Below are positions 9,272-62,548 of a stretch of DNA of 64,000 nt, piece by piece. Under the pieces are notes generated by a model, which worked only from the letters and a program-made list of their open reading frames with translations, made no database searches and had not been told where the DNA came from. The position numbers and the translations under genes were made by a program. The stretch is taken from the NCBI RefSeq assembly GCF_046105845.1, contig NZ_CP151004.1. One strand, given 5' to 3'. Origin of the DNA: Escherichia coli (GTDB taxonomy: Bacteria; Pseudomonadota; Gammaproteobacteria; Enterobacterales; Enterobacteriaceae). Each line of letters opens with the position of its first letter. Position 1 is the first letter of the stretch.

Positions 9272-10643
9272 AGAGTTCCCCGCGCCAGCGGGGATAAACC
9301 GTTGTCCTGCTGAACCAAGTAAGCCACTGACAAGAGTTCCCCGCGCCAGCGGGGATAAACCGCATTATATCCTGTGCGTCGTTCATTTATTTACGAGTTC
9401 CCCGCGCCAGCGGGGATAAACCGGCCGCCGCATGGCAAAACAAACATCGGGGTACGAGTTCCCCGCGCCAGCGGGGATAAACCGGAACGGCGGCTATACG
9501 GATTCGACAGGTCAGCGAGTTCCCCGCGCCAGCGGGGATAAACCGGATTGAATGCAGATGGTTCAATGCTCGCATTCGAGTTCCCCGCGCCAGCGGGGAT
9601 AAACCGCCACGCGTGCTTTGAGTGGATGGTGTCGCTTGGAGTTCCCCGCGCCAGCGGGGATAAACCGATACATTATTAAGCGGGCAATTTTTCCAGTTTG
9701 AGTTCCCCGCGCCAGCGGGGATAAACCGAACGGCACGGCCTGCCGCCACGTCCCGCAGCTGAGTTCCCCGCGCCAGCGGGGATAAACCGGGGCCGTGTTT
9801 TCTAACGGATTCGCACATTGCGAGTTCCCCGCGCCAGCGGGGATAAACCGCAGCAGTTCAATACTGAAATCAACATGCCGATGAGTTCCCCGCGCCAGCG
9901 GGGATAAACCGCGCGGTGGGGTTTCATTCGCATCAATTCAAGGGAGTTCCCCGCGCCAGCGGGGATAAACCGGCGGTGAGTGAGAAAATCAGGACGGCTG
10001 CGAGGAGTTCCCCGCGCCAGCGGGGATAAACCGCGCCAAATATGCTGGTGGACTTCTACGCCGATGAGTTCCCCGCGCCAGCGGGGATAAACCGCTATCG
10101 ACGGTCAAGAAAATCCACCGGAAGAAGAGTTCCCCGCGCCAGCGGGGATAAACCGGCAGCAATATATTTGACATAATAGATAACCCGGAGTTCCCCGCGC
10201 CAGCGGGGATAAACCGACGCCAGGGGAGATATAACGCGCCTGTTATGGGAGTTCCCCGCGCCAGCGGGGATAAACCGGTCTTAACTAAAAGATGACCATT
10301 CAGTCGCAGGAGTTCCCCGCGCCAGCGGGGATAAACCGCGGCCCATAATATTAATATAATCCACATGAGGGAGTTCCCCGCGCCAGCGGGGATAAACCGC
10401 GCCGGAAATCATCGTTCTGTAATTGTCTAGCGAGTTCCCCGCGCCAGCGGGGATAAACCGCCCTGTTTGTTATTCCCATTATACGTATAAGAGAGTTCCC
10501 CGCGCCAGCGGGGATAAACCGCTTCTGGCTGGAGGTGGAGAAACGGAGGCAATGAGTTCCCCGCGTTAGCGGGGATAAACCGGATTTAGAGAGCCAGACG
10601 TTGGTCAGTTATTCGAGTTCCCCGCGTCAGCGGGGATAACCAT
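9272..10643 (+). CRISPR. orphan type I-E CRISPR array, 23 repeats / 22 spacers
   Basis: 29-bp repeat GAGTTCCCCGCGCCAGCGGGGATAAACCG at 61-bp period (first interval 62); last two repeats degenerate (GCGTTAGCGGGG; GCGTCAGCGGGGATAACCAT); no cas genes adjacent. Confidence 0.97.
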
Positions 10644-19289: not shown

Positions 19290-19865
19290 TCAAAGCAATT
19301 TTTTCGCTAACGTCCAGACCCCGGTATTCGTGGTGGAAAGCGCCACAACACCCGCGTTAATCGCATTACGCGCATCTTCTTCATCGCACACCAGCCCGCC
19401 GGCAATCAGCGGTTGGCGGATTTTCTCCGTCACCCAGCCCAGCACTTTAGGCATACAGCCTGGCAGGATCTCAATACAATCCGGATTCGATTGCGCAACT
19501 TGCTTATCAATGTTGTGAAACGAAATTGAATCAACAATAAACAGGCGATGAATACAGAAAAAACCTTCCGCTCTTGCCGCTTTCAACATTGAGGCTTTGG
19601 TACTGATAATGCCGTCCGCCTCAGTCACCAGTTTCAAAAACTGAATCACCACTTCTTTATTTGACGCGCCTTCCAGCAAATCAACATGAATAAAAGCATA
19701 TTTTCCGGCATTTTTAATCTTTTTAACGATTTGACTAATGGTGCAGATATTGCCGTACAACACGGAAATAAACTGGCATTCAGAGTCGATTGCCAGTTGC
19801 AGGCTGGCATTATCTTTAACGGCAGCAATCACCGGATTCTGGCGGAGCAGGTGTAAGAGGGGCAT
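19290..19865 (-). CDS. ygcP: GlpP-family putative RNA-binding transcription antiterminator
   Basis: 191-aa ORF MPLLHLLRQNPVIAAVKDNASLQLAIDSE..., GlpP-like. Confidence 0.75.
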   Translation of the reverse strand: MPLLHLLRQNPVIAAVKDNASLQLAIDSECQFISVLYGNICTISQIVKKIKNAGKYAFIHVDLLEGASNKEVVIQFLKLVTEADGIISTKASMLKAARAEGFFCIHRLFIVDSISFHNIDKQVAQSNPDCIEILPGCMPKVLGWVTEKIRQPLIAGGLVCDEEDARNAINAGVVALSTTNTGVWTLAKKLL

Positions 19866-53546: not shown

Positions 53547-55625
53547 TTAAATCAATGCCGATTTATCAATTCCCAGTCGCTTCATCCGTGACAGCAGAGT
53601 CGTGCGTTTCAGCCCCAGACGTTGCGCAGCGCCTTTAGGCCCGGCAACCACGCCGTTGGTTTCTTTCAGCACGCGAACAATCAACTGATATTCATCTTCG
53701 CCCTCCTGGGCGACAACCGTTGCGGCAGGCGGCGTTTCTGGTTCCGGTAAAACAATATCTGGCAGTGACAGCTGCAGCACGTTGCCGCGTGTTAGCAATA
53801 CCGCGCGCTCAATGACGTTTTCCAGTTCGCGTACGTTACCCGGCCACTCCATGTTGCTCAGGATGCGCAGCGTCTCGGCAGGAATGCTGTCGATATTGCG
53901 CCCCAGACGACGGGCAATTTTGAAGGTAAAGGCTTTCGCCAGCAGCGGAATATCTTCCGGACGCTCGCGTAGTGGCGGCAGGTGAATCGGGAATACGTTC
54001 AGGCGGTAATAGAGATCGCTACGGAACTCACGGTCGGCGACCATTTTTTTCAGATCGCGGTTAGTTGCGGCGATTAGACGCACGTCCGTCTGAATGATTT
54101 TGTTGCTGCCGAGACGTTCAAACTCCTGTTCCTGTAATACACGCAGCAACTTCGGCTGTAACTCCAGTGGCATATCGCCCACTTCGTCGAGGAACAGGGA
54201 GCTTTTATCCGCCAGTTCAAAACGACCGATACGCTGGGCGCTGGCACCGGTAAAAGCCCCACGCTCATGACCAAACAGATCGCTCTCTAGCAATCCGGCA
54301 GGCATCGCCGCGCAGTTCATTTTTACCATGCGGCGATTATTACGCCCACTGAGATTATGGATCGCGCGGGCAATCAGCTCTTTACCCGTGCCAGTTTCAC
54401 CGAGGATCAGCACGGTACTGTCGCTTTGCGCCACCATTTCAACTTGTTTAAGTACGCTGTACATGGCTTCGCTGCGGCCAATAATCTCGCCAAATTCACT
54501 ATCAACATTGTTGAGCTGCTCGGTCAGGGCGAGGTTTTCATCAACCAGCCGTTCTTTCAGACGATGGATTTCCTGATAGGCGAGGGCGTTATCGACAGCG
54601 ATTGCCACACGTTCGGCAATCTGGCGCAGTAAATTCAGATTGGTAGTGGTAAACACTTTCTCTTCGCATTGCGCCAGTTTCAGCACGCCCAGCATGGTGT
54701 CGCCAGACATCAGCGGTAACAGGCACAAGGTTTGAATCTGGTTGCCCCAGGTGTCGAACAACATGCGTTCATAGGGGGCTAAATCGTCCCGCTCGTGGAG
54801 ATTAATCAGCAGCATCTCTTTGCTTTTGAACACGCGTTCGGTGAGGGTTCCGGCTTCATCGACTTCGCTCTGTTCGTGGGCGGGATGCTGTTTATCAAGA
54901 TAGTGAGTGGAGTAGATGTTGAGTTTGTTTTTACGGTGGCTGCGTAAGACGATGCTGATATCGTCAATGTCGAAGTAGTAATGGATTTCTTTGGCGACTT
55001 CGCTGACCAGTTCGTCCATATCCAGGCGGGAAAGCACCGCGTTGGTAATGGCAACCAGGATGCGGAAGTTATCGCGCTCCCGGCATAACAACTCATAGTC
55101 GACATTATTGACGACGCGGCTCTGGATTTGTTCGGTGACGACAGAAACGATCTGCGTAAATGTTTGCAGACGATTGAACTCTTTTTCGCTCCAGGGGCGA
55201 TCGTCATAACGAATAAATTCACAGCCACCAAAAATATGCCCTTCCGCCGCCAGTGGCATCAGGCAATAGTGACCAAATTTGGGGTATAGCCCACCTGCGG
55301 CCAGCTGCGGCCAGGTTTCACAAAATTCTTCGTAACTGCAATGCAGCGTATCAGGGCGCGACAAAATGCTGCGTACCGGACCGTGTGCCAGAACAGTTTC
55401 GTCTTCATATTTAATGGGGGTGTCTTTTTCACGCGATGCGTAATAAGACGCACGTTGAGTCTGCGCTTGCCACAACACAATAGCCGCGTTGTCGGCGAGC
55501 GCAGAACGCTTTACCAGTTGCGAAAGAGCCTCACACAGCGAGGCCAGATCGGGCTGCTGCAATAGTGTCCGAGTGATGTCGAACAACCCTTGTTGTCCGA
55601 GATCACTCATCGGTGTATATGACAT
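53547..55625 (-). CDS. fhlA: formate hydrogenlyase transcriptional activator (sigma-54 dependent)
   Basis: 692 aa from MSYTPMSDLGQQGLFDITRTLLQQPDL...; GAF domains, AAA+ sigma-54 interaction (GETGTGKE, GAFTGA), C-terminal HTH. Confidence 0.95.
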   Translation of the reverse strand: MSYTPMSDLGQQGLFDITRTLLQQPDLASLCEALSQLVKRSALADNAAIVLWQAQTQRASYYASREKDTPIKYEDETVLAHGPVRSILSRPDTLHCSYEEFCETWPQLAAGGLYPKFGHYCLMPLAAEGHIFGGCEFIRYDDRPWSEKEFNRLQTFTQIVSVVTEQIQSRVVNNVDYELLCRERDNFRILVAITNAVLSRLDMDELVSEVAKEIHYYFDIDDISIVLRSHRKNKLNIYSTHYLDKQHPAHEQSEVDEAGTLTERVFKSKEMLLINLHERDDLAPYERMLFDTWGNQIQTLCLLPLMSGDTMLGVLKLAQCEEKVFTTTNLNLLRQIAERVAIAVDNALAYQEIHRLKERLVDENLALTEQLNNVDSEFGEIIGRSEAMYSVLKQVEMVAQSDSTVLILGETGTGKELIARAIHNLSGRNNRRMVKMNCAAMPAGLLESDLFGHERGAFTGASAQRIGRFELADKSSLFLDEVGDMPLELQPKLLRVLQEQEFERLGSNKIIQTDVRLIAATNRDLKKMVADREFRSDLYYRLNVFPIHLPPLRERPEDIPLLAKAFTFKIARRLGRNIDSIPAETLRILSNMEWPGNVRELENVIERAVLLTRGNVLQLSLPDIVLPEPETPPAATVVAQEGEDEYQLIVRVLKETNGVVAGPKGAAQRLGLKRTTLLSRMKRLGIDKSALI

Positions 55626-58099: not shown

Positions 58100-58962
58100 C
58101 GCTGTGTCTCCAGCCAGTTCAGCCACTGGTCCATCCCTTCGCCGCTGGTGGCGGAAATAAGGATGATTTCAATTTCTGGATTGACTTCGCGGGCGCAGGC
58201 GATGCACTTCTCAACGTCAAAGTTGAGATACGGCAACAGGTCAACTTTGTTGAGCAGCATCAGCGAGGCGGCGGCAAACATATGCGGATATTTCAGCGGT
58301 TTGTCTTCACCTTCGGTAACGGAAAGCACCGCCACTTTGTGTTTTTCACCGAGATCGAAGCTGGCCGGGCATACAAGGTTGCCAACGTTTTCGATAAACA
58401 GAATACCGTTATCGTCCAGTGGCAGACGCGGTGCGGCGTCGGCAATCATCTGTGCGTCAAGATGGCAGCCTTTACCGGTGTTCACCTGAATCGCTGGTGT
58501 GCCGGTAGCGCGAATGCGTGCGGCATCGTTCACGGTTTGCTGGTCGCCTTCAATAACCGCGCACGGAACGCTGTCTTTCAGGCGCATTAAGGTTTCCGTC
58601 AGCAGGGTGGTTTTACCGGAACCAGGGCTGGAAACCAGGTTGAGCACCAGTTGCTTGCGGGCAGCAAAGCGCGCGCGGTTGCGTTCAGCCAGACGGTTAT
58701 TTTTGTCCAGCACGTCAATTTCGACTTCCAGCATCCGACGCTGGCTCATGCCCGGCGCGTGAGTGCCCGCTTCGCCATGACCGTAATGCAGGTCGCCTTC
58801 TTCAGTCTGGCTGGGGGTAAATTCAGGCGCTTTAATGCCGGTGATTTTCATCTTCGGGCGTGCCGCCGGGGCAAATGGCGCGCTACGAAACGCGGAATGA
58901 GGGTTATGTTCATCACCCTCAATATAGAGGTTGCCTTCACCGCAACCGCATGTTGTACACAT
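58090..58962 (-). CDS. hypB: hydrogenase nickel incorporation GTPase HypB
   Basis: 290-aa [13 protein letters not shown]..., His-rich N-terminus, P-loop GSGKTT. Confidence 0.93.
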
Positions 58963-58965
58963 CGC

Positions 58966-59316
58966 TCACTCCTGGTCTATTTCTATCCGCCGAATCTGTA
59001 AACCGTCGTCTGCCACAATCTGTAGCATGTCACCATGACACTGTGGACAGCGGCGGACGCGCTGGGTCAGTAGCGTCACATACTGTTGGCATGTTTCACA
59101 CCAGCATTCGGCCTCTTGTTCTTCGAGGTGCAGTTTACAACCTTCCGCCACGCTGCCGCGGCAAACCAGATCAAAACAAAAGGCAAGAGAGCTGGTTTCG
59201 ACACAAGAAAATGCGCCAATTTTGAGCCAGACCCCAGTTACGCGTTTTGCGCCGTGTTTTGCGGCCTGCTGTTCGATCAATTCCAGTGCCCGTTGGCAGA
59301 GGGTTATTTCGTGCAT
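58966..59316 (-). CDS. hypA: hydrogenase nickel incorporation protein HypA
   Basis: 116 aa from MHEITLCQRALELIEQQAAKHGAKRVTGVWL...; zinc-binding CxxC pairs. Confidence 0.9.
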   Translation of the reverse strand: MHEITLCQRALELIEQQAAKHGAKRVTGVWLKIGAFSCVETSSLAFCFDLVCRGSVAEGCKLHLEEQEAECWCETCQQYVTLLTQRVRRCPQCHGDMLQIVADDGLQIRRIEIDQE

Positions 59317-59346
59317 ATCGCCTCCCATTAACTATTGCCAGCTACA

Positions 59347-59362
59347 AGCAATAATTGTGCCA
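59347..59362 (-). promoter_or_regulatory. sigma-54 (-24/-12) promoter for hyp operon
   Basis: Minus-strand reading CTGGCACaattaTTGC: exact GG-N10-GC sigma-54 consensus spacing, about 30 nt upstream of hypA. Confidence 0.6.
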
Positions 59363-59475
59363 GTGTTGATTATCCCTGCAGTGAATAATGTCGATGATGT
59401 CGAAATGACACGTCGACACGGCGACGAAATTCATCTTTAGCTTAAAAATCGCTTTAATAACAATGAATTAAAAGT

Positions 59476-59491
59476 TGGCACAGAAAATGCT
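59476..59491 (+). promoter_or_regulatory. sigma-54 (-24/-12) promoter for hyc operon
   Basis: TTGGCACagaaaaTGCTT with GG-N10-GC spacing, about 40 nt upstream of hycA; FhlA (sigma-54 activator) encoded nearby. Confidence 0.6.
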
Positions 59492-59527
59492 TAAAGCTGG
59501 CATCTCTGTTAAACGGGTAACCTGACA

Positions 59528-59989
59528 ATGACTATTTGGGAAATAAGCGAGAAAGCCGATTACATCGCACAGCGGCATCGTCGCCTACAGGACCAGTGGC
59601 ACATCTACTGCAATTCGCTGGTTCAGGGGATCACGTTATCGAAAGCGCGCCTGCATCACGCCATGAGCTGCGCGCCGGACAAAGAACTCTGTTTCGTCCT
59701 TTTTGAACATTTTCGTATTTACGTCACCCTGGCGGATGGCTTTAACAGCCACACCATCGAGTATTACGTCGAAACAAAAGATGGTGAAGACAAACAGCGG
59801 ATTGCGCAGGCGCAACTGAGCATTGACGGCATGATTGATGGCAAGGTCAACATCCGCGATCGCGAACAGGTTCTGGAACACTATCTCGAAAAAATCGCTG
59901 GCGTTTACGACAGCTTATACACCGCCATTGAAAACAATGTGCCGGTGAATTTAAGCCAACTGGTAAAGGGACAAAGCCCGGCAGCATGA
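59528..59989 (+). CDS. hycA: formate hydrogenlyase regulatory protein HycA
   Basis: 153-aa ORF MTIWEISEKADYIAQRHRRLQDQWHIY... Confidence 0.88.
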   Translation: MTIWEISEKADYIAQRHRRLQDQWHIYCNSLVQGITLSKARLHHAMSCAPDKELCFVLFEHFRIYVTLADGFNSHTIEYYVETKDGEDKQRIAQAQLSIDGMIDGKVNIRDREQVLEHYLEKIAGVYDSLYTAIENNVPVNLSQLVKGQSPAA

Positions 59990-60113
59990 GCTGAGGCTTT
60001 GCCCGTTTTGCAGGCGTTACGCCTGTTTGGGGATGGGCGTGTCGATGAGTGTCGAAAATGACATTTTATCGGCATGTTTTCGTCAAAAATGACAATCACC
60101 TGAGGAATGCCTG

Positions 60114-60725
60114 GTGAATCGTTTTGTAATTGCTGACTCCACGCTCTGTATCGGCTGCCACACCTGTGAGGCCGCCTGTTCAGAGACGCATCGCCAGCAC
60201 GGCCTGCAATCAATGCCGCGCCTGCGAGTGATGCTCAATGAAAAAGAATCTGCGCCGCAGCTCTGTCACCACTGTGAAGATGCGCCCTGTGCGGTGGTTT
60301 GCCCGGTTAACGCCATCACCCGCGTTGATGGGGCCGTGCAGTTAAATGAAAGTCTGTGCGTAAGCTGCAAACTGTGCGGCATCGCCTGCCCGTTTGGCGC
60401 AATTGAATTTTCCGGCAGCCGTCCGCTGGATATTCCGGCAAATGCCAATACCCCGAAAGCGCCACCGGCACCGCCTGCTCCGGCGCGTGTCAGCACATTG
60501 CTTGACTGGGTGCCAGGTATTCGCGCGATCGCCGTCAAATGTGACCTTTGTAGTTTTGATGAACAAGGTCCGGCCTGCGTGCGGATGTGCCCGACTAAAG
60601 CCCTGCATCTGGTGGATAACACCGATATCGCCCGCGTCAGCAAACGTAAGCGTGAGCTGACTTTTAACACGGACTTTGGCGATCTCACCTTGTTTCAGCA
60701 GGCTCAAAGTGGAGAGGCTAAATGA
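60114..60725 (+). CDS. hycB: formate hydrogenlyase subunit 2 (4Fe-4S ferredoxin-type)
   Basis: 203-aa ORF with multiple CxxCxxCxxxCP motifs. Confidence 0.92.
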   Translation: MNRFVIADSTLCIGCHTCEAACSETHRQHGLQSMPRLRVMLNEKESAPQLCHHCEDAPCAVVCPVNAITRVDGAVQLNESLCVSCKLCGIACPFGAIEFSGSRPLDIPANANTPKAPPAPPAPARVSTLLDWVPGIRAIAVKCDLCSFDEQGPACVRMCPTKALHLVDNTDIARVSKRKRELTFNTDFGDLTLFQQAQSGEAK

Positions 60726-62548
60726 GCGCAATTTCCCTGATCAATAGCGGCGTGGCGTGGTTTGTCGCCGCCGCTGTTCTGGCATTTCTCTTTTCTTTTC
60801 AAAAGGCGCTAAGCGGCTGGATAGCCGGAATTGGCGGCGCGGTTGGTAGCCTGTATACGGCAGCCGCGGGCTTTACTGTGCTGACTGGCGCGGTTGGCGT
60901 GAGCGGTGCGCTGTCGCTGGTAAACTACGATGTGCAAATCTCTCCGCTTAACGCGATTTGGCTGATTACGCTCGGTCTGTGCGGTCTGTTTGTCAGCCTC
61001 TACAACATTGACTGGCATCGCCACGCGCAGGTGAAGTGCAACGGCTTGCAGATCAATATGTTGATGGCTGCCGCCGTCTGCGCCGTCATCGCCAGCAACC
61101 TCGGCATGTTCGTGGTAATGGCTGAAATCATGGCCCTGTGCGCGGTGTTCCTTACCAGCAACAGCAAAGAGGGCAAACTGTGGTTTGCGCTGGGGCGTCT
61201 TGGCACTCTGCTGCTGGCGATTGCCTGCTGGCTGCTGTGGCAGCGTTACGGCACGCTGGATCTGCGCCTGCTGGATATGCGTATGCAACAGCTGCCGCTC
61301 GGTTCCGATATCTGGCTGCTCGGTGTGATTGGCTTTGGCCTGCTGGCCGGGATTATTCCGCTGCACGGCTGGGTGCCGCAGGCACATGCGAACGCCTCTG
61401 CGCCAGCTGCCGCGTTGTTTTCTACGGTAGTCATGAAAATTGGCCTGCTGGGCATTTTAACCCTGTCGCTGCTGGGCGGTAATGCACCGCTGTGGTGGGG
61501 GATCGCGCTGCTGGTGCTCGGCATGATCACCGCGTTCGTCGGCGGTCTGTATGCGCTGATGGAGCACAACATCCAGCGCCTGCTGGCTTACCACACCCTG
61601 GAAAATATCGGCATCATCCTGCTGGGGCTGGGCGCTGGCGTAACGGGTATCGCGCTCGAACAACCGGCGCTGATTGCTCTTGGCCTGGTTGGTGGTCTGT
61701 ATCATCTGCTTAACCATAGCCTGTTCAAAAGCGTACTGTTCCTCGGGGCGGGGAGCGTCTGGTTCCGTACCGGTCATCGCGATATCGAAAAACTCGGTGG
61801 TATAGGCAAGAAAATGCCGGTTATCTCCATCGCCATGTTGGTCGGGCTGATGGCAATGGCTGCGCTGCCGCCGCTGAACGGTTTTGCCGGGGAATGGGTT
61901 ATCTATCAATCCTTCTTCAAATTGAGCAATAGTGGCGCGTTTGTTGCCCGTCTGCTGGGGCCACTGCTTGCTGTGGGTCTGGCAATTACCGGTGCGCTGG
62001 CGGTGATGTGTATGGCGAAAGTCTATGGCGTCACGTTCCTCGGTGCGCCGCGTACCAAAGAAGCCGAAAACGCCACCTGTGCGCCGCTCCTGATGAGCGT
62101 AAGCGTAGTGGCACTGGCGATTTGCTGCGTAATTGGCGGTGTTGCTGCGCCGTGGCTGCTGCCGATGCTCTCTGCTGCTGTACCTCTGCCGCTGGAGCCT
62201 GCTAACACCACCGTTTCTCAACCCATGATCACGTTGCTGCTGATTGCCTGCCCGCTGCTGCCATTCATCATTATGGCGATTTGCAAAGGCGACCGTTTGC
62301 CGTCGCGTTCCCGCGGCGCGGCCTGGGTGTGCGGCTACGACCACGAAAAATCAATGGTGATTACCGCTCACGGTTTTGCCATGCCGGTGAAACAGGCGTT
62401 TGCGCCAGTGCTGAAACTGCGCAAATGGCTGAATCCGGTGTCGCTGGTGCCGGGCTGGCAGTGCGAAGGCAGTGCGTTGCTGTTCCGCCGGATGGCGCTG
62501 GTTGAACTGGCGGTGCTGGTGGTGATTATTGTTTCACGAGGAGCCTGA
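60722..62548 (+). CDS. hycC: formate hydrogenlyase subunit 3 (membrane, NuoL/antiporter-like)
   Basis: 608-aa polytopic membrane ORF; overlaps hycB end. Confidence 0.92.
   Translation: MSAISLINSGVAWFVAAAVLAFLFSFQKALSGWIAGIGGAVGSLYTAAAGFTVLTGAVGVSGALSLVNYDVQISPLNAIWLITLGLCGLFVSLYNIDWHRHAQVKCNGLQINMLMAAAVCAVIASNLGMFVVMAEIMALCAVFLTSNSKEGKLWFALGRLGTLLLAIACWLLWQRYGTLDLRLLDMRMQQLPLGSDIWLLGVIGFGLLAGIIPLHGWVPQAHANASAPAAALFSTVVMKIGLLGILTLSLLGGNAPLWWGIALLVLGMITAFVGGLYALMEHNIQRLLAYHTLENIGIILLGLGAGVTGIALEQPALIALGLVGGLYHLLNHSLFKSVLFLGAGSVWFRTGHRDIEKLGGIGKKMPVISIAMLVGLMAMAALPPLNGFAGEWVIYQSFFKLSNSGAFVARLLGPLLAVGLAITGALAVMCMAKVYGVTFLGAPRTKEAENATCAPLLMSVSVVALAICCVIGGVAAPWLLPMLSAAVPLPLEPANTTVSQPMITLLLIACPLLPFIIMAICKGDRLPSRSRGAAWVCGYDHEKSMVITAHGFAMPVKQAFAPVLKLRKWLNPVSLVPGWQCEGSALLFRRMALVELAVLVVIIVSRGA

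Follow-up and report, generated by a model that had tools for sequence, protein, structure and literature searches.

The hyp and hyc operons of Escherichia coli diverge from a spacer of 211 bp, which corresponds to positions 59317-59527 of the window, i.e., of the whole stretch of 64,000 nucleotides analyzed here. An initial annotation, made from the sequence alone, raised the question of whether two short GG-N10-GC motifs in this spacer, one on each strand, are back-to-back sigma-54 promoters, and with it the question of which activator sites might serve them. The evidence presented here indicates that the motifs are the known divergent sigma-54 (RpoN) promoters controlling the formate hydrogenlyase genes of E. 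coli, and to this reading as a whole, comprising FhlA, its enhancers, and DNA looping, we attribute a probability of about 95%. The finding is correct but ordinary, as the promoters are already known.

The window stems from an E. coli strain other than K-12. Its segment 59100-59760 recurs with 100% identity in many complete E. coli genomes, a match being present in 5425 of 5426 genomes, and in the annotation of the matching genomes hypA is on the minus and hycA on the plus strand. Segment 59250-60150 aligns without indels to K-12 MG1655, where coordinates (NC_000913.3) are obtained by subtracting the window coordinate from 2909963, and four SNPs distinguish the two spacers (59380, 59451, 59465, and 59483). 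On the minus strand the gene order is hypA, hypB, hypC, hypD, hypE, fhlA. The genes that matter most for the argument are:

58966..59316, minus strand: hypA, first gene of the hyp operon (annotation; Pfam HypA, E = 7.6e-31), with its ATG at 59316
59528..59989, plus strand: hycA, first gene of the hyc operon, coding for an FhlA antagonist (annotation; Pfam HycA_repressor, E = 1.3e-90), with its ATG at 59528
53547..55625, minus strand: fhlA, coding for the formate-sensing enhancer-binding protein of 692 aa, last gene of the hyp transcription unit (K-12 annotation)

As had been proposed, fhlA closes the hyp operon, after hypE, and the operons are given as hycABCDEFGHI and hypABCDE-fhlA in the literature (PMC8743547). 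FhlA is the cognate enhancer-binding protein encoded in this genome, with a sensory domain (Pfam GAF), a sigma-54-interacting AAA+ domain (Sigma54_activat, E = 1.1e-72), and a helix-turn-helix domain, for which the HTH_8 match, at 21.0 bits, is just below the curated cut-off of 22 bits.

Both motifs are present at the places and in the directions that the initial annotation had given for them, pointing toward hypA and hycA, respectively:

59363->59347, minus strand: P_hyp, sigma-54 -24/-12 promoter of hypABCDE-fhlA, CTGGCACAATTATTGCT, with GG at 59361-59360 and GC at 59349-59348; predicted +1 at 59336 (20 nt upstream of the hypA start codon)
59475-59491, plus strand: P_hyc, sigma-54 -24/-12 promoter of hycABCDEFGHI, TTGGCACAGAAAATGCT, with GG at 59477-59478 and GC at 59489-59490; predicted +1 at 59502 (26 nt upstream of the hycA start codon)

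In each of them GG and GC stand 10 bp apart within an extended consensus, a short distance upstream of the gene that the motif faces. The centers of the two motifs are about 128 bp apart, close to the separation of about 130 bp claimed earlier, whereas the distance is 114 bp between the T residues of the two TGGCA elements and 166 bp between the predicted starts.

One might argue that both motifs are only chance resemblances to sigma-54 sites and that the two operons are driven by other promoters. Indeed, the bare GG-N10-GC pattern occurs in the window at chance frequency (664 matches vs. 654 +/- 26 expected) and is therefore uninformative alone; the signal sits in the extended motif, YTGGCACGrNNNTTGCW. 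The 16-mer TGGCACNNNNNTTGCW (TGGCAC-N5-TTGCW) has one exact match in the window, which is P_hyp, with 0.13 matches expected, and P_hyc deviates from it by one mismatch. When scored with a matrix constructed from the 133 other sigma-54 sites of Tables 1 and 2 in PMC4591121, P_hyp (20.2 bits) and P_hyc (17.3 bits) are the two best sites of the window, and P_hyp exceeds all 133 training sites, which have a median of 14.3 and a maximum of 18.5 bits. On an iid background, 0.002 sites with the score of P_hyp and 0.06 sites with that of P_hyc are expected per window, and for a site scoring as P_hyc within the spacer the expectation is 2e-4. When the window was simulated 1000 times with a first-order Markov model, 20.2 bits were reached in 0.6% and 17.3 bits in 18% of the cases, so that P_hyc on its own is only moderately unusual at the scale of the window. 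However, the occurrence of the pair in one divergent spacer of 211 bp, in correct orientation and with starts 20 and 26 nt from the ATGs, is far beyond chance. Also, promoters of another type that could replace them are not apparent, as a scan for sigma-70 promoters in the region 58900-60200 gave one weak match vs. 1.3 expected and none above chance in the spacer. An Rfam scan of the same region (E <= 1) identified no family, only a spurious microRNA match.

Some other patterns surfaced in these scans. A CRISPR array with a period of 61 bp and the repeat GAGTTCCCCGCGCCAGCGGGGATAAACCG, situated at 9455-10522 of the window, appeared as a series of periodic GG-N10-GC matches; its repeat is presumably the E. 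coli type I-E repeat. Two sigma-54-like motifs lie on the plus strand 141 bp apart, TTGGTACTGATAATGCC at 19597-19613 (13.0 bits) and ATGGTGCAGATATTGCC at 19738-19754 (13.3 bits), each of them individually at chance level. A 27-nt inverted repeat, GCTT..AGCTGGCA, makes the two promoters of the hypA-hycA spacer resemble each other beyond the -12 element, and an inverted duplication or a shared downstream element was considered, but as its hyp-side copy is not conserved outside Escherichia it was rejected as a functional element.

Published occupancy data bear most directly on the chance reading. In ChIP-seq experiments on sigma-54 of K-12, site OS27 was assigned to hycA (TTGGCACAAAAAATGCT, FAT 91) and site OS28 to hypA (CTGGCACAATTATTGCT, FAT 201), with predicted starts 26 and 20 nt from hycA and hypA, respectively; OS28 has the highest occupancy as well as the highest PSSM score among all 135 sites, and both promoters are flagged in Table 1 as experimentally confirmed in EcoCyc (PMC4591121). 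These experiments were carried out in aerobic minimal medium, and both promoters were occupied without induction (PMC4591121). K-12 hycAp and hypAp (OS27, OS28; PMC4591121) belong to the same locus, with the same genes and the same spacer of 211 bp, and P_hyp is identical in both strains. In contrast, P_hyc differs from its K-12 counterpart by one base, G instead of A at 59483, which falls between the -24 and -12 elements, where the sequence is not conserved; it is the only one of the four SNPs to lie within a promoter. E. albertii, E. whittamii, and E. coli strain E69 carry the same G. In gSELEX experiments, an in vitro approach, RpoN holoenzyme yielded a peak within the hypA-hycA spacer (PMC8743547), and in Salmonella LT2 ChIP-chip combined with microarrays detected the back-to-back pair and assigned it to FhlA (PMC3844500, PMC4987338). 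Formate- and FhlA-dependent expression of hyc and hyp is stated in several reports (PMC4591121, PMC3844500, PMC11841067).

Membership in the FhlA-dependent formate regulon, as suggested by the initial annotation, is therefore supported by ChIP-seq, gSELEX, the Salmonella ChIP-chip and microarray data, and the EcoCyc flag, and the feature is already known. The primary mapping of the start sites of these promoters is reportedly that of Lutz and colleagues, published in 1990 in Mol Microbiol. As intact and correctly oriented textbook promoters of the formate regulon, the two motifs confirm that sequence and orientation are sound, so that the earlier suggestion to use them as an internal checkpoint of sequence integrity is justified, although this matters little beyond quality control.

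Conservation was studied with 80 orthologous loci, one genome per species, that cover about 20 genera of enterobacteria (Escherichia, Salmonella, Citrobacter, Enterobacter, Klebsiella, Kluyvera, Raoultella, Kosakonia, Lelliottia, Pseudocitrobacter, and others). The loci were retrieved with the HycA protein as query and the sample is thus independent of the promoters; together with the window they make up 81 sequences. In all 81, hypA and hycA diverge from a spacer of 188-223 bp that contains both promoters, with scores of 17.2-20.0 bits on the hyp side and 14.0-18.1 bits on the hyc side. The distance from predicted start to ATG is 18-24 nt for hyp (32 nt in one locus) and 24-27 nt for hyc. In the spacer alignment, the promoters, the ribosome-binding regions, and the enhancer core and IHF-like block treated further below make up the conserved islands that stand out from otherwise divergent DNA:

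the hypA ribosome-binding site
P_hyp
ATGTCGAnGATGnCGAAATGACAYGTC
the A/T-rich stretch AAATCAATnnATTAAAA
P_hyc
the hyc leader TCTC..TTAAACGGGTAACCTGAC

The persistence of both motifs at fixed distances from the start codons throughout some 20 genera, the occupancy by sigma-54 in vivo and in vitro, and the rarity of a score like that of P_hyp in random windows make it extremely improbable that the motifs arose by chance, even though a third sigma-54-like site of chance-level score exists nearby. As a separate observation, the 5' leader of hycA (TCTCTGTTAAACGGGTAACCTGAC, 59503-59526, plus strand) is conserved in many genera, far better than the hypA leader, and contains only a weak Shine-Dalgarno-like GGG.

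The third site just mentioned, GTGGCACATCTACTGCA at 59596-59612 on the plus strand, is situated inside hycA and, if it were to fire, would give rise to a hyc transcript lacking hycA. With 13.9 bits it is the third best site of the window, but by chance a window should contain about 1.1 (iid) to 2.6 (Markov) sites that score like this. Over 28 nt it is 71% identical to P_hyp, and all 81 loci have it at the same codon, with up to 17.3 bits in some species; this position, however, coincides with a conserved peptide, W-x-x-Y-C, in which the single Trp codon provides the GG and the Cys codon TGC provides the GC. In 21 of the 81 loci the Cys codon is the synonymous TGT, so that nothing points to selection acting on the DNA motif itself. 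Although E. coli has many sigma-54 sites inside genes (PMC4591121), the ChIP-seq tables contain no peak at this place, and a term search of the supplementary text files gave no match. We therefore think that the site most likely owes its existence to the conserved W-x-x-Y-C codons and that its functioning as a promoter is quite unlikely. Another intragenic motif, GTGGCGCGTTTGTTGCC at 61932-61948 (plus strand) inside hycC, scores 12.6 bits and is the published weak ChIP-seq site IS31 (FAT 1), which is identical here.

If the two motifs are FhlA-dependent sigma-54 promoters, enhancer sequences should be recognizable in their surroundings. Two blocks of similar sequence are candidates for this role:

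59388..59430, no strand assigned: UAS1, FhlA-type enhancer block between the promoters, ATGTCGATGATGTCGAAATGACACGTCGACACGGCGACGAAAT, candidate FhlA site with its core conserved in 81 of 81 loci and with two dyads, TGTCGaaaTGACA (59398-59410) and CGTCGacacggCGACG (59411-59426)
60039..60094, no strand assigned: UAS2, second FhlA-type block, in the hycA-hycB spacer, GTGTCGATGAGTGTCGAAAATGACA ... TTTTCGTCAAAAATGACA, candidate FhlA site

UAS2 lies outside 59317-59527, at 703-758 bp upstream of the predicted P_hyp start. It is a near-copy of UAS1 and more strongly conserved than the latter; its TTTCGTCAAAAATGAC is nearly invariant in the 81 loci and better conserved than the adjoining 3' end of hycA. 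GTC..GAC dyads similar to those of UAS1 and UAS2 are present upstream of K-12 fdhF and hydN, roughly 60-150 nt upstream of the -24 element, whereas none was picked out in the region upstream of hyfA. A conserved upstream enhancer block is thus common to the hyp-hyc pair and other members of the FhlA regulon. A terminator-like match at 59426-59411 turned out to be simply the CGTCG..CGACG dyad of the enhancer.

The FhlA upstream activating sequences envisaged between the two promoters in the initial annotation are therefore represented by a conserved block of FhlA type (59388-59430), but not by a match to the consensus. For FhlA, PMC4987338 quotes an idealized 16-bp consensus, CATTTCGTACGAAATG, from Leonhartsberger et al. 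(2000). No match to it with up to 3 mismatches exists anywhere in the window; the hyp-hyc spacer comes no closer than 7 mismatches (9 of 16 bases), and the neighborhood no closer than 5, at 60076 inside UAS2. The only part of the consensus found exactly is the half-site CGAAATG at 59401-59407, inside UAS1. For this reason CATTTCGTACGAAATG was dropped as an enhancer detector, and the assignment rests on conservation, on the recurrence of the block at a second place, and on its likeness to other regulon members. As the consensus is an idealized palindrome, the failed match weakens it as a search tool more than it weakens the membership of hyp and hyc in the regulon.

Footprinting experiments by Schlensog and colleagues and by Hopper and colleagues, both of 1994 in J Biol Chem, are said to have located FhlA on the hyc enhancer and on a second site, in the hycA-hycB spacer, through which the hyp promoter is served; the former study, on the purification and footprinting of FhlA, reportedly found the hycA-hycB site to be required for hyp activation, and IHF is said to bind between the hyc enhancer and the hyc promoter. 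The conserved UAS2 is located exactly where these accounts place the hyp-serving site and is consistent with them.

A putative site for IHF is present as well:

59458..59470, plus strand: IHF-like core TAACAATGAATTA, between UAS1 and P_hyc, with one mismatch to WATCARNNNNTTR; putative

An A/T tract (59442-59452) is located 5' of this core. The IHF consensus WATCARNNNNTTR is matched exactly at this position in 32 of the 81 loci, and the distance between the IHF-like block and the TGGCA of P_hyc is fixed at 15 nt (16 nt in 9 of the 81 loci). IHF has been named as activator of both hyc and hyp (PMC2636881). In K-12, the IHF-like block AATAACAGTAAATTAAAAACTGGCA also precedes hydN, where its distance to TGGCA is the same as in P_hyc. 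When the hydN upstream region of K-12 is compared with 59455-59480 of the window, a near-identical AATAACA(G/A)T(A/G)AATTAAAA is followed in both by two variable bases and TGGCA. This common block spans the IHF-like site and the -24 element, and suggests either a shared origin or a shared architectural constraint.

How the two enhancer blocks might be divided between the two promoters was approached through their spacing, measured from the alignment columns of the 81 loci with the GACA that is invariant in the enhancer core and the TGGCA of either promoter as reference points:

P_hyp to UAS1 core: 43-45 nt (57 loci) or 54-56 nt (24 loci)
UAS1 core to P_hyc: 47 nt (3 loci), 58-61 nt (43 loci), or 69-70 nt (35 loci)
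promoter to promoter: 92, 102-103, or 112-116 bp

Intermediate spacing values do not occur among the 81 loci. The classes differ by 10-12 bp, i.e., by about one helical turn; the loci were counted individually and presumably represent few independent indel events. Such stepwise spacing is as expected if an activator had to face the polymerase, although the small number of independent indels, or the internal 10-11-bp repeat of the enhancer, may also yield steps of this kind. UAS1 could accordingly be in helical phase with both promoters, and one FhlA assembly may face both closed complexes, making UAS1 a shared or competing bidirectional enhancer, an idea that we put forward only tentatively.

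A model in which UAS1 is the shared enhancer of P_hyc and P_hyp, with UAS2 being auxiliary or acting on P_hyc from downstream, competes with one in which the blocks are strictly divided, UAS1 acting for hyc and UAS2 for hyp. The distance on the hyp side is as sharply quantized as that on the hyc side, which suggests a face-of-the-helix constraint toward both promoters and leaves room for UAS1 to act on both, and UAS1, at about -52 to -94 relative to the predicted start of hyp, is at a workable distance for an enhancer. However, the stronger conservation of UAS2 argues for an essential role of this block and against a shared UAS1, as does the hycA-hycB site if it is indeed needed for hyp activation, as reportedly found in the 1994 work of Schlensog and colleagues, and the spacing classes perhaps reflect only the handful of indels or the enhancer repeat mentioned above. 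A shared UAS1 thus seems rather doubtful to us.

For the preferred reading of two FhlA-activated sigma-54 promoters, the observations on the sequence are the motifs with their strength, orientation, position, and conservation, the enhancer and IHF-like blocks, and the quantized spacing, and the following sequence of events would account for them. Sigma-54 RNA polymerase would form a closed complex on each -24/-12 element and be unable to start transcription alone. Formate would activate FhlA, an enhancer-binding ATPase, which would bind to the blocks of GTC..GAC dyads at 59388-59430 and 60039-60094. DNA looping, probably aided by an IHF-induced bend just upstream of P_hyc (near -47), would bring FhlA to the polymerase, and ATP hydrolysis by FhlA would open the promoter. 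P_hyc would then lead to the expression of hycA-I, i.e., of hydrogenase 3 and the FhlA antagonist HycA, and P_hyp to that of hypABCDE-fhlA, i.e., of the maturation proteins and FhlA. As P_hyp would yield FhlA and P_hyc would yield HycA, one positive and one negative feedback loop might act on the activator. In this scheme the enhancer-to-promoter assignment, the exact start sites, and the looping geometry are inferred or taken from background knowledge, and for the steps that go further than motif, position, and conservation we draw on what is established about bacterial enhancer-binding proteins and the formate regulon (PMC4987338, PMC11841067). This picture of the control region across Enterobacteriaceae, with both promoters in every locus, a fixed IHF-like site, two enhancer blocks flanking hycA, and spacing in helical turns, opens no new question but might serve as a guide for the engineering of hydrogen-producing strains and for the design of formate-responsive promoters.

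The arrangement has close and more distant counterparts. In Salmonella Typhimurium LT2, the hycA and hypA promoters (STM2853, STM2854; PMC3844500) are likewise back to back, with the same 114-bp spacing of the TGGCA elements, bound by sigma-54, and assigned to FhlA, but their motifs, TGGCATGGAAAATGCTTA and TGGCATAAATATTGCTTT, have TGGCAT in place of TGGCAC and other spacer bases. The zraP and zraS promoters of E. coli (OS38, OS39; PMC4591121) also form a back-to-back sigma-54 pair in one spacer, about 150 bp apart. As in the hyp-hyc case, both promoters answer to a single enhancer-binding protein whose gene belongs to one of the two operons, although here ZraR is the activator and zinc the signal. 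We know of no second enhancer inside a downstream operon for zraP/zraS. The fdhF, hydN-hypF, and hyfA promoters of E. coli belong to the FhlA regulon and depend on sigma-54 as hyc and hyp do, but they are single and not part of a divergent pair. Their published PSSM scores (9.2-11.0) are weaker than those of the hyc/hyp pair (12.4 and 14.1; PMC4591121).
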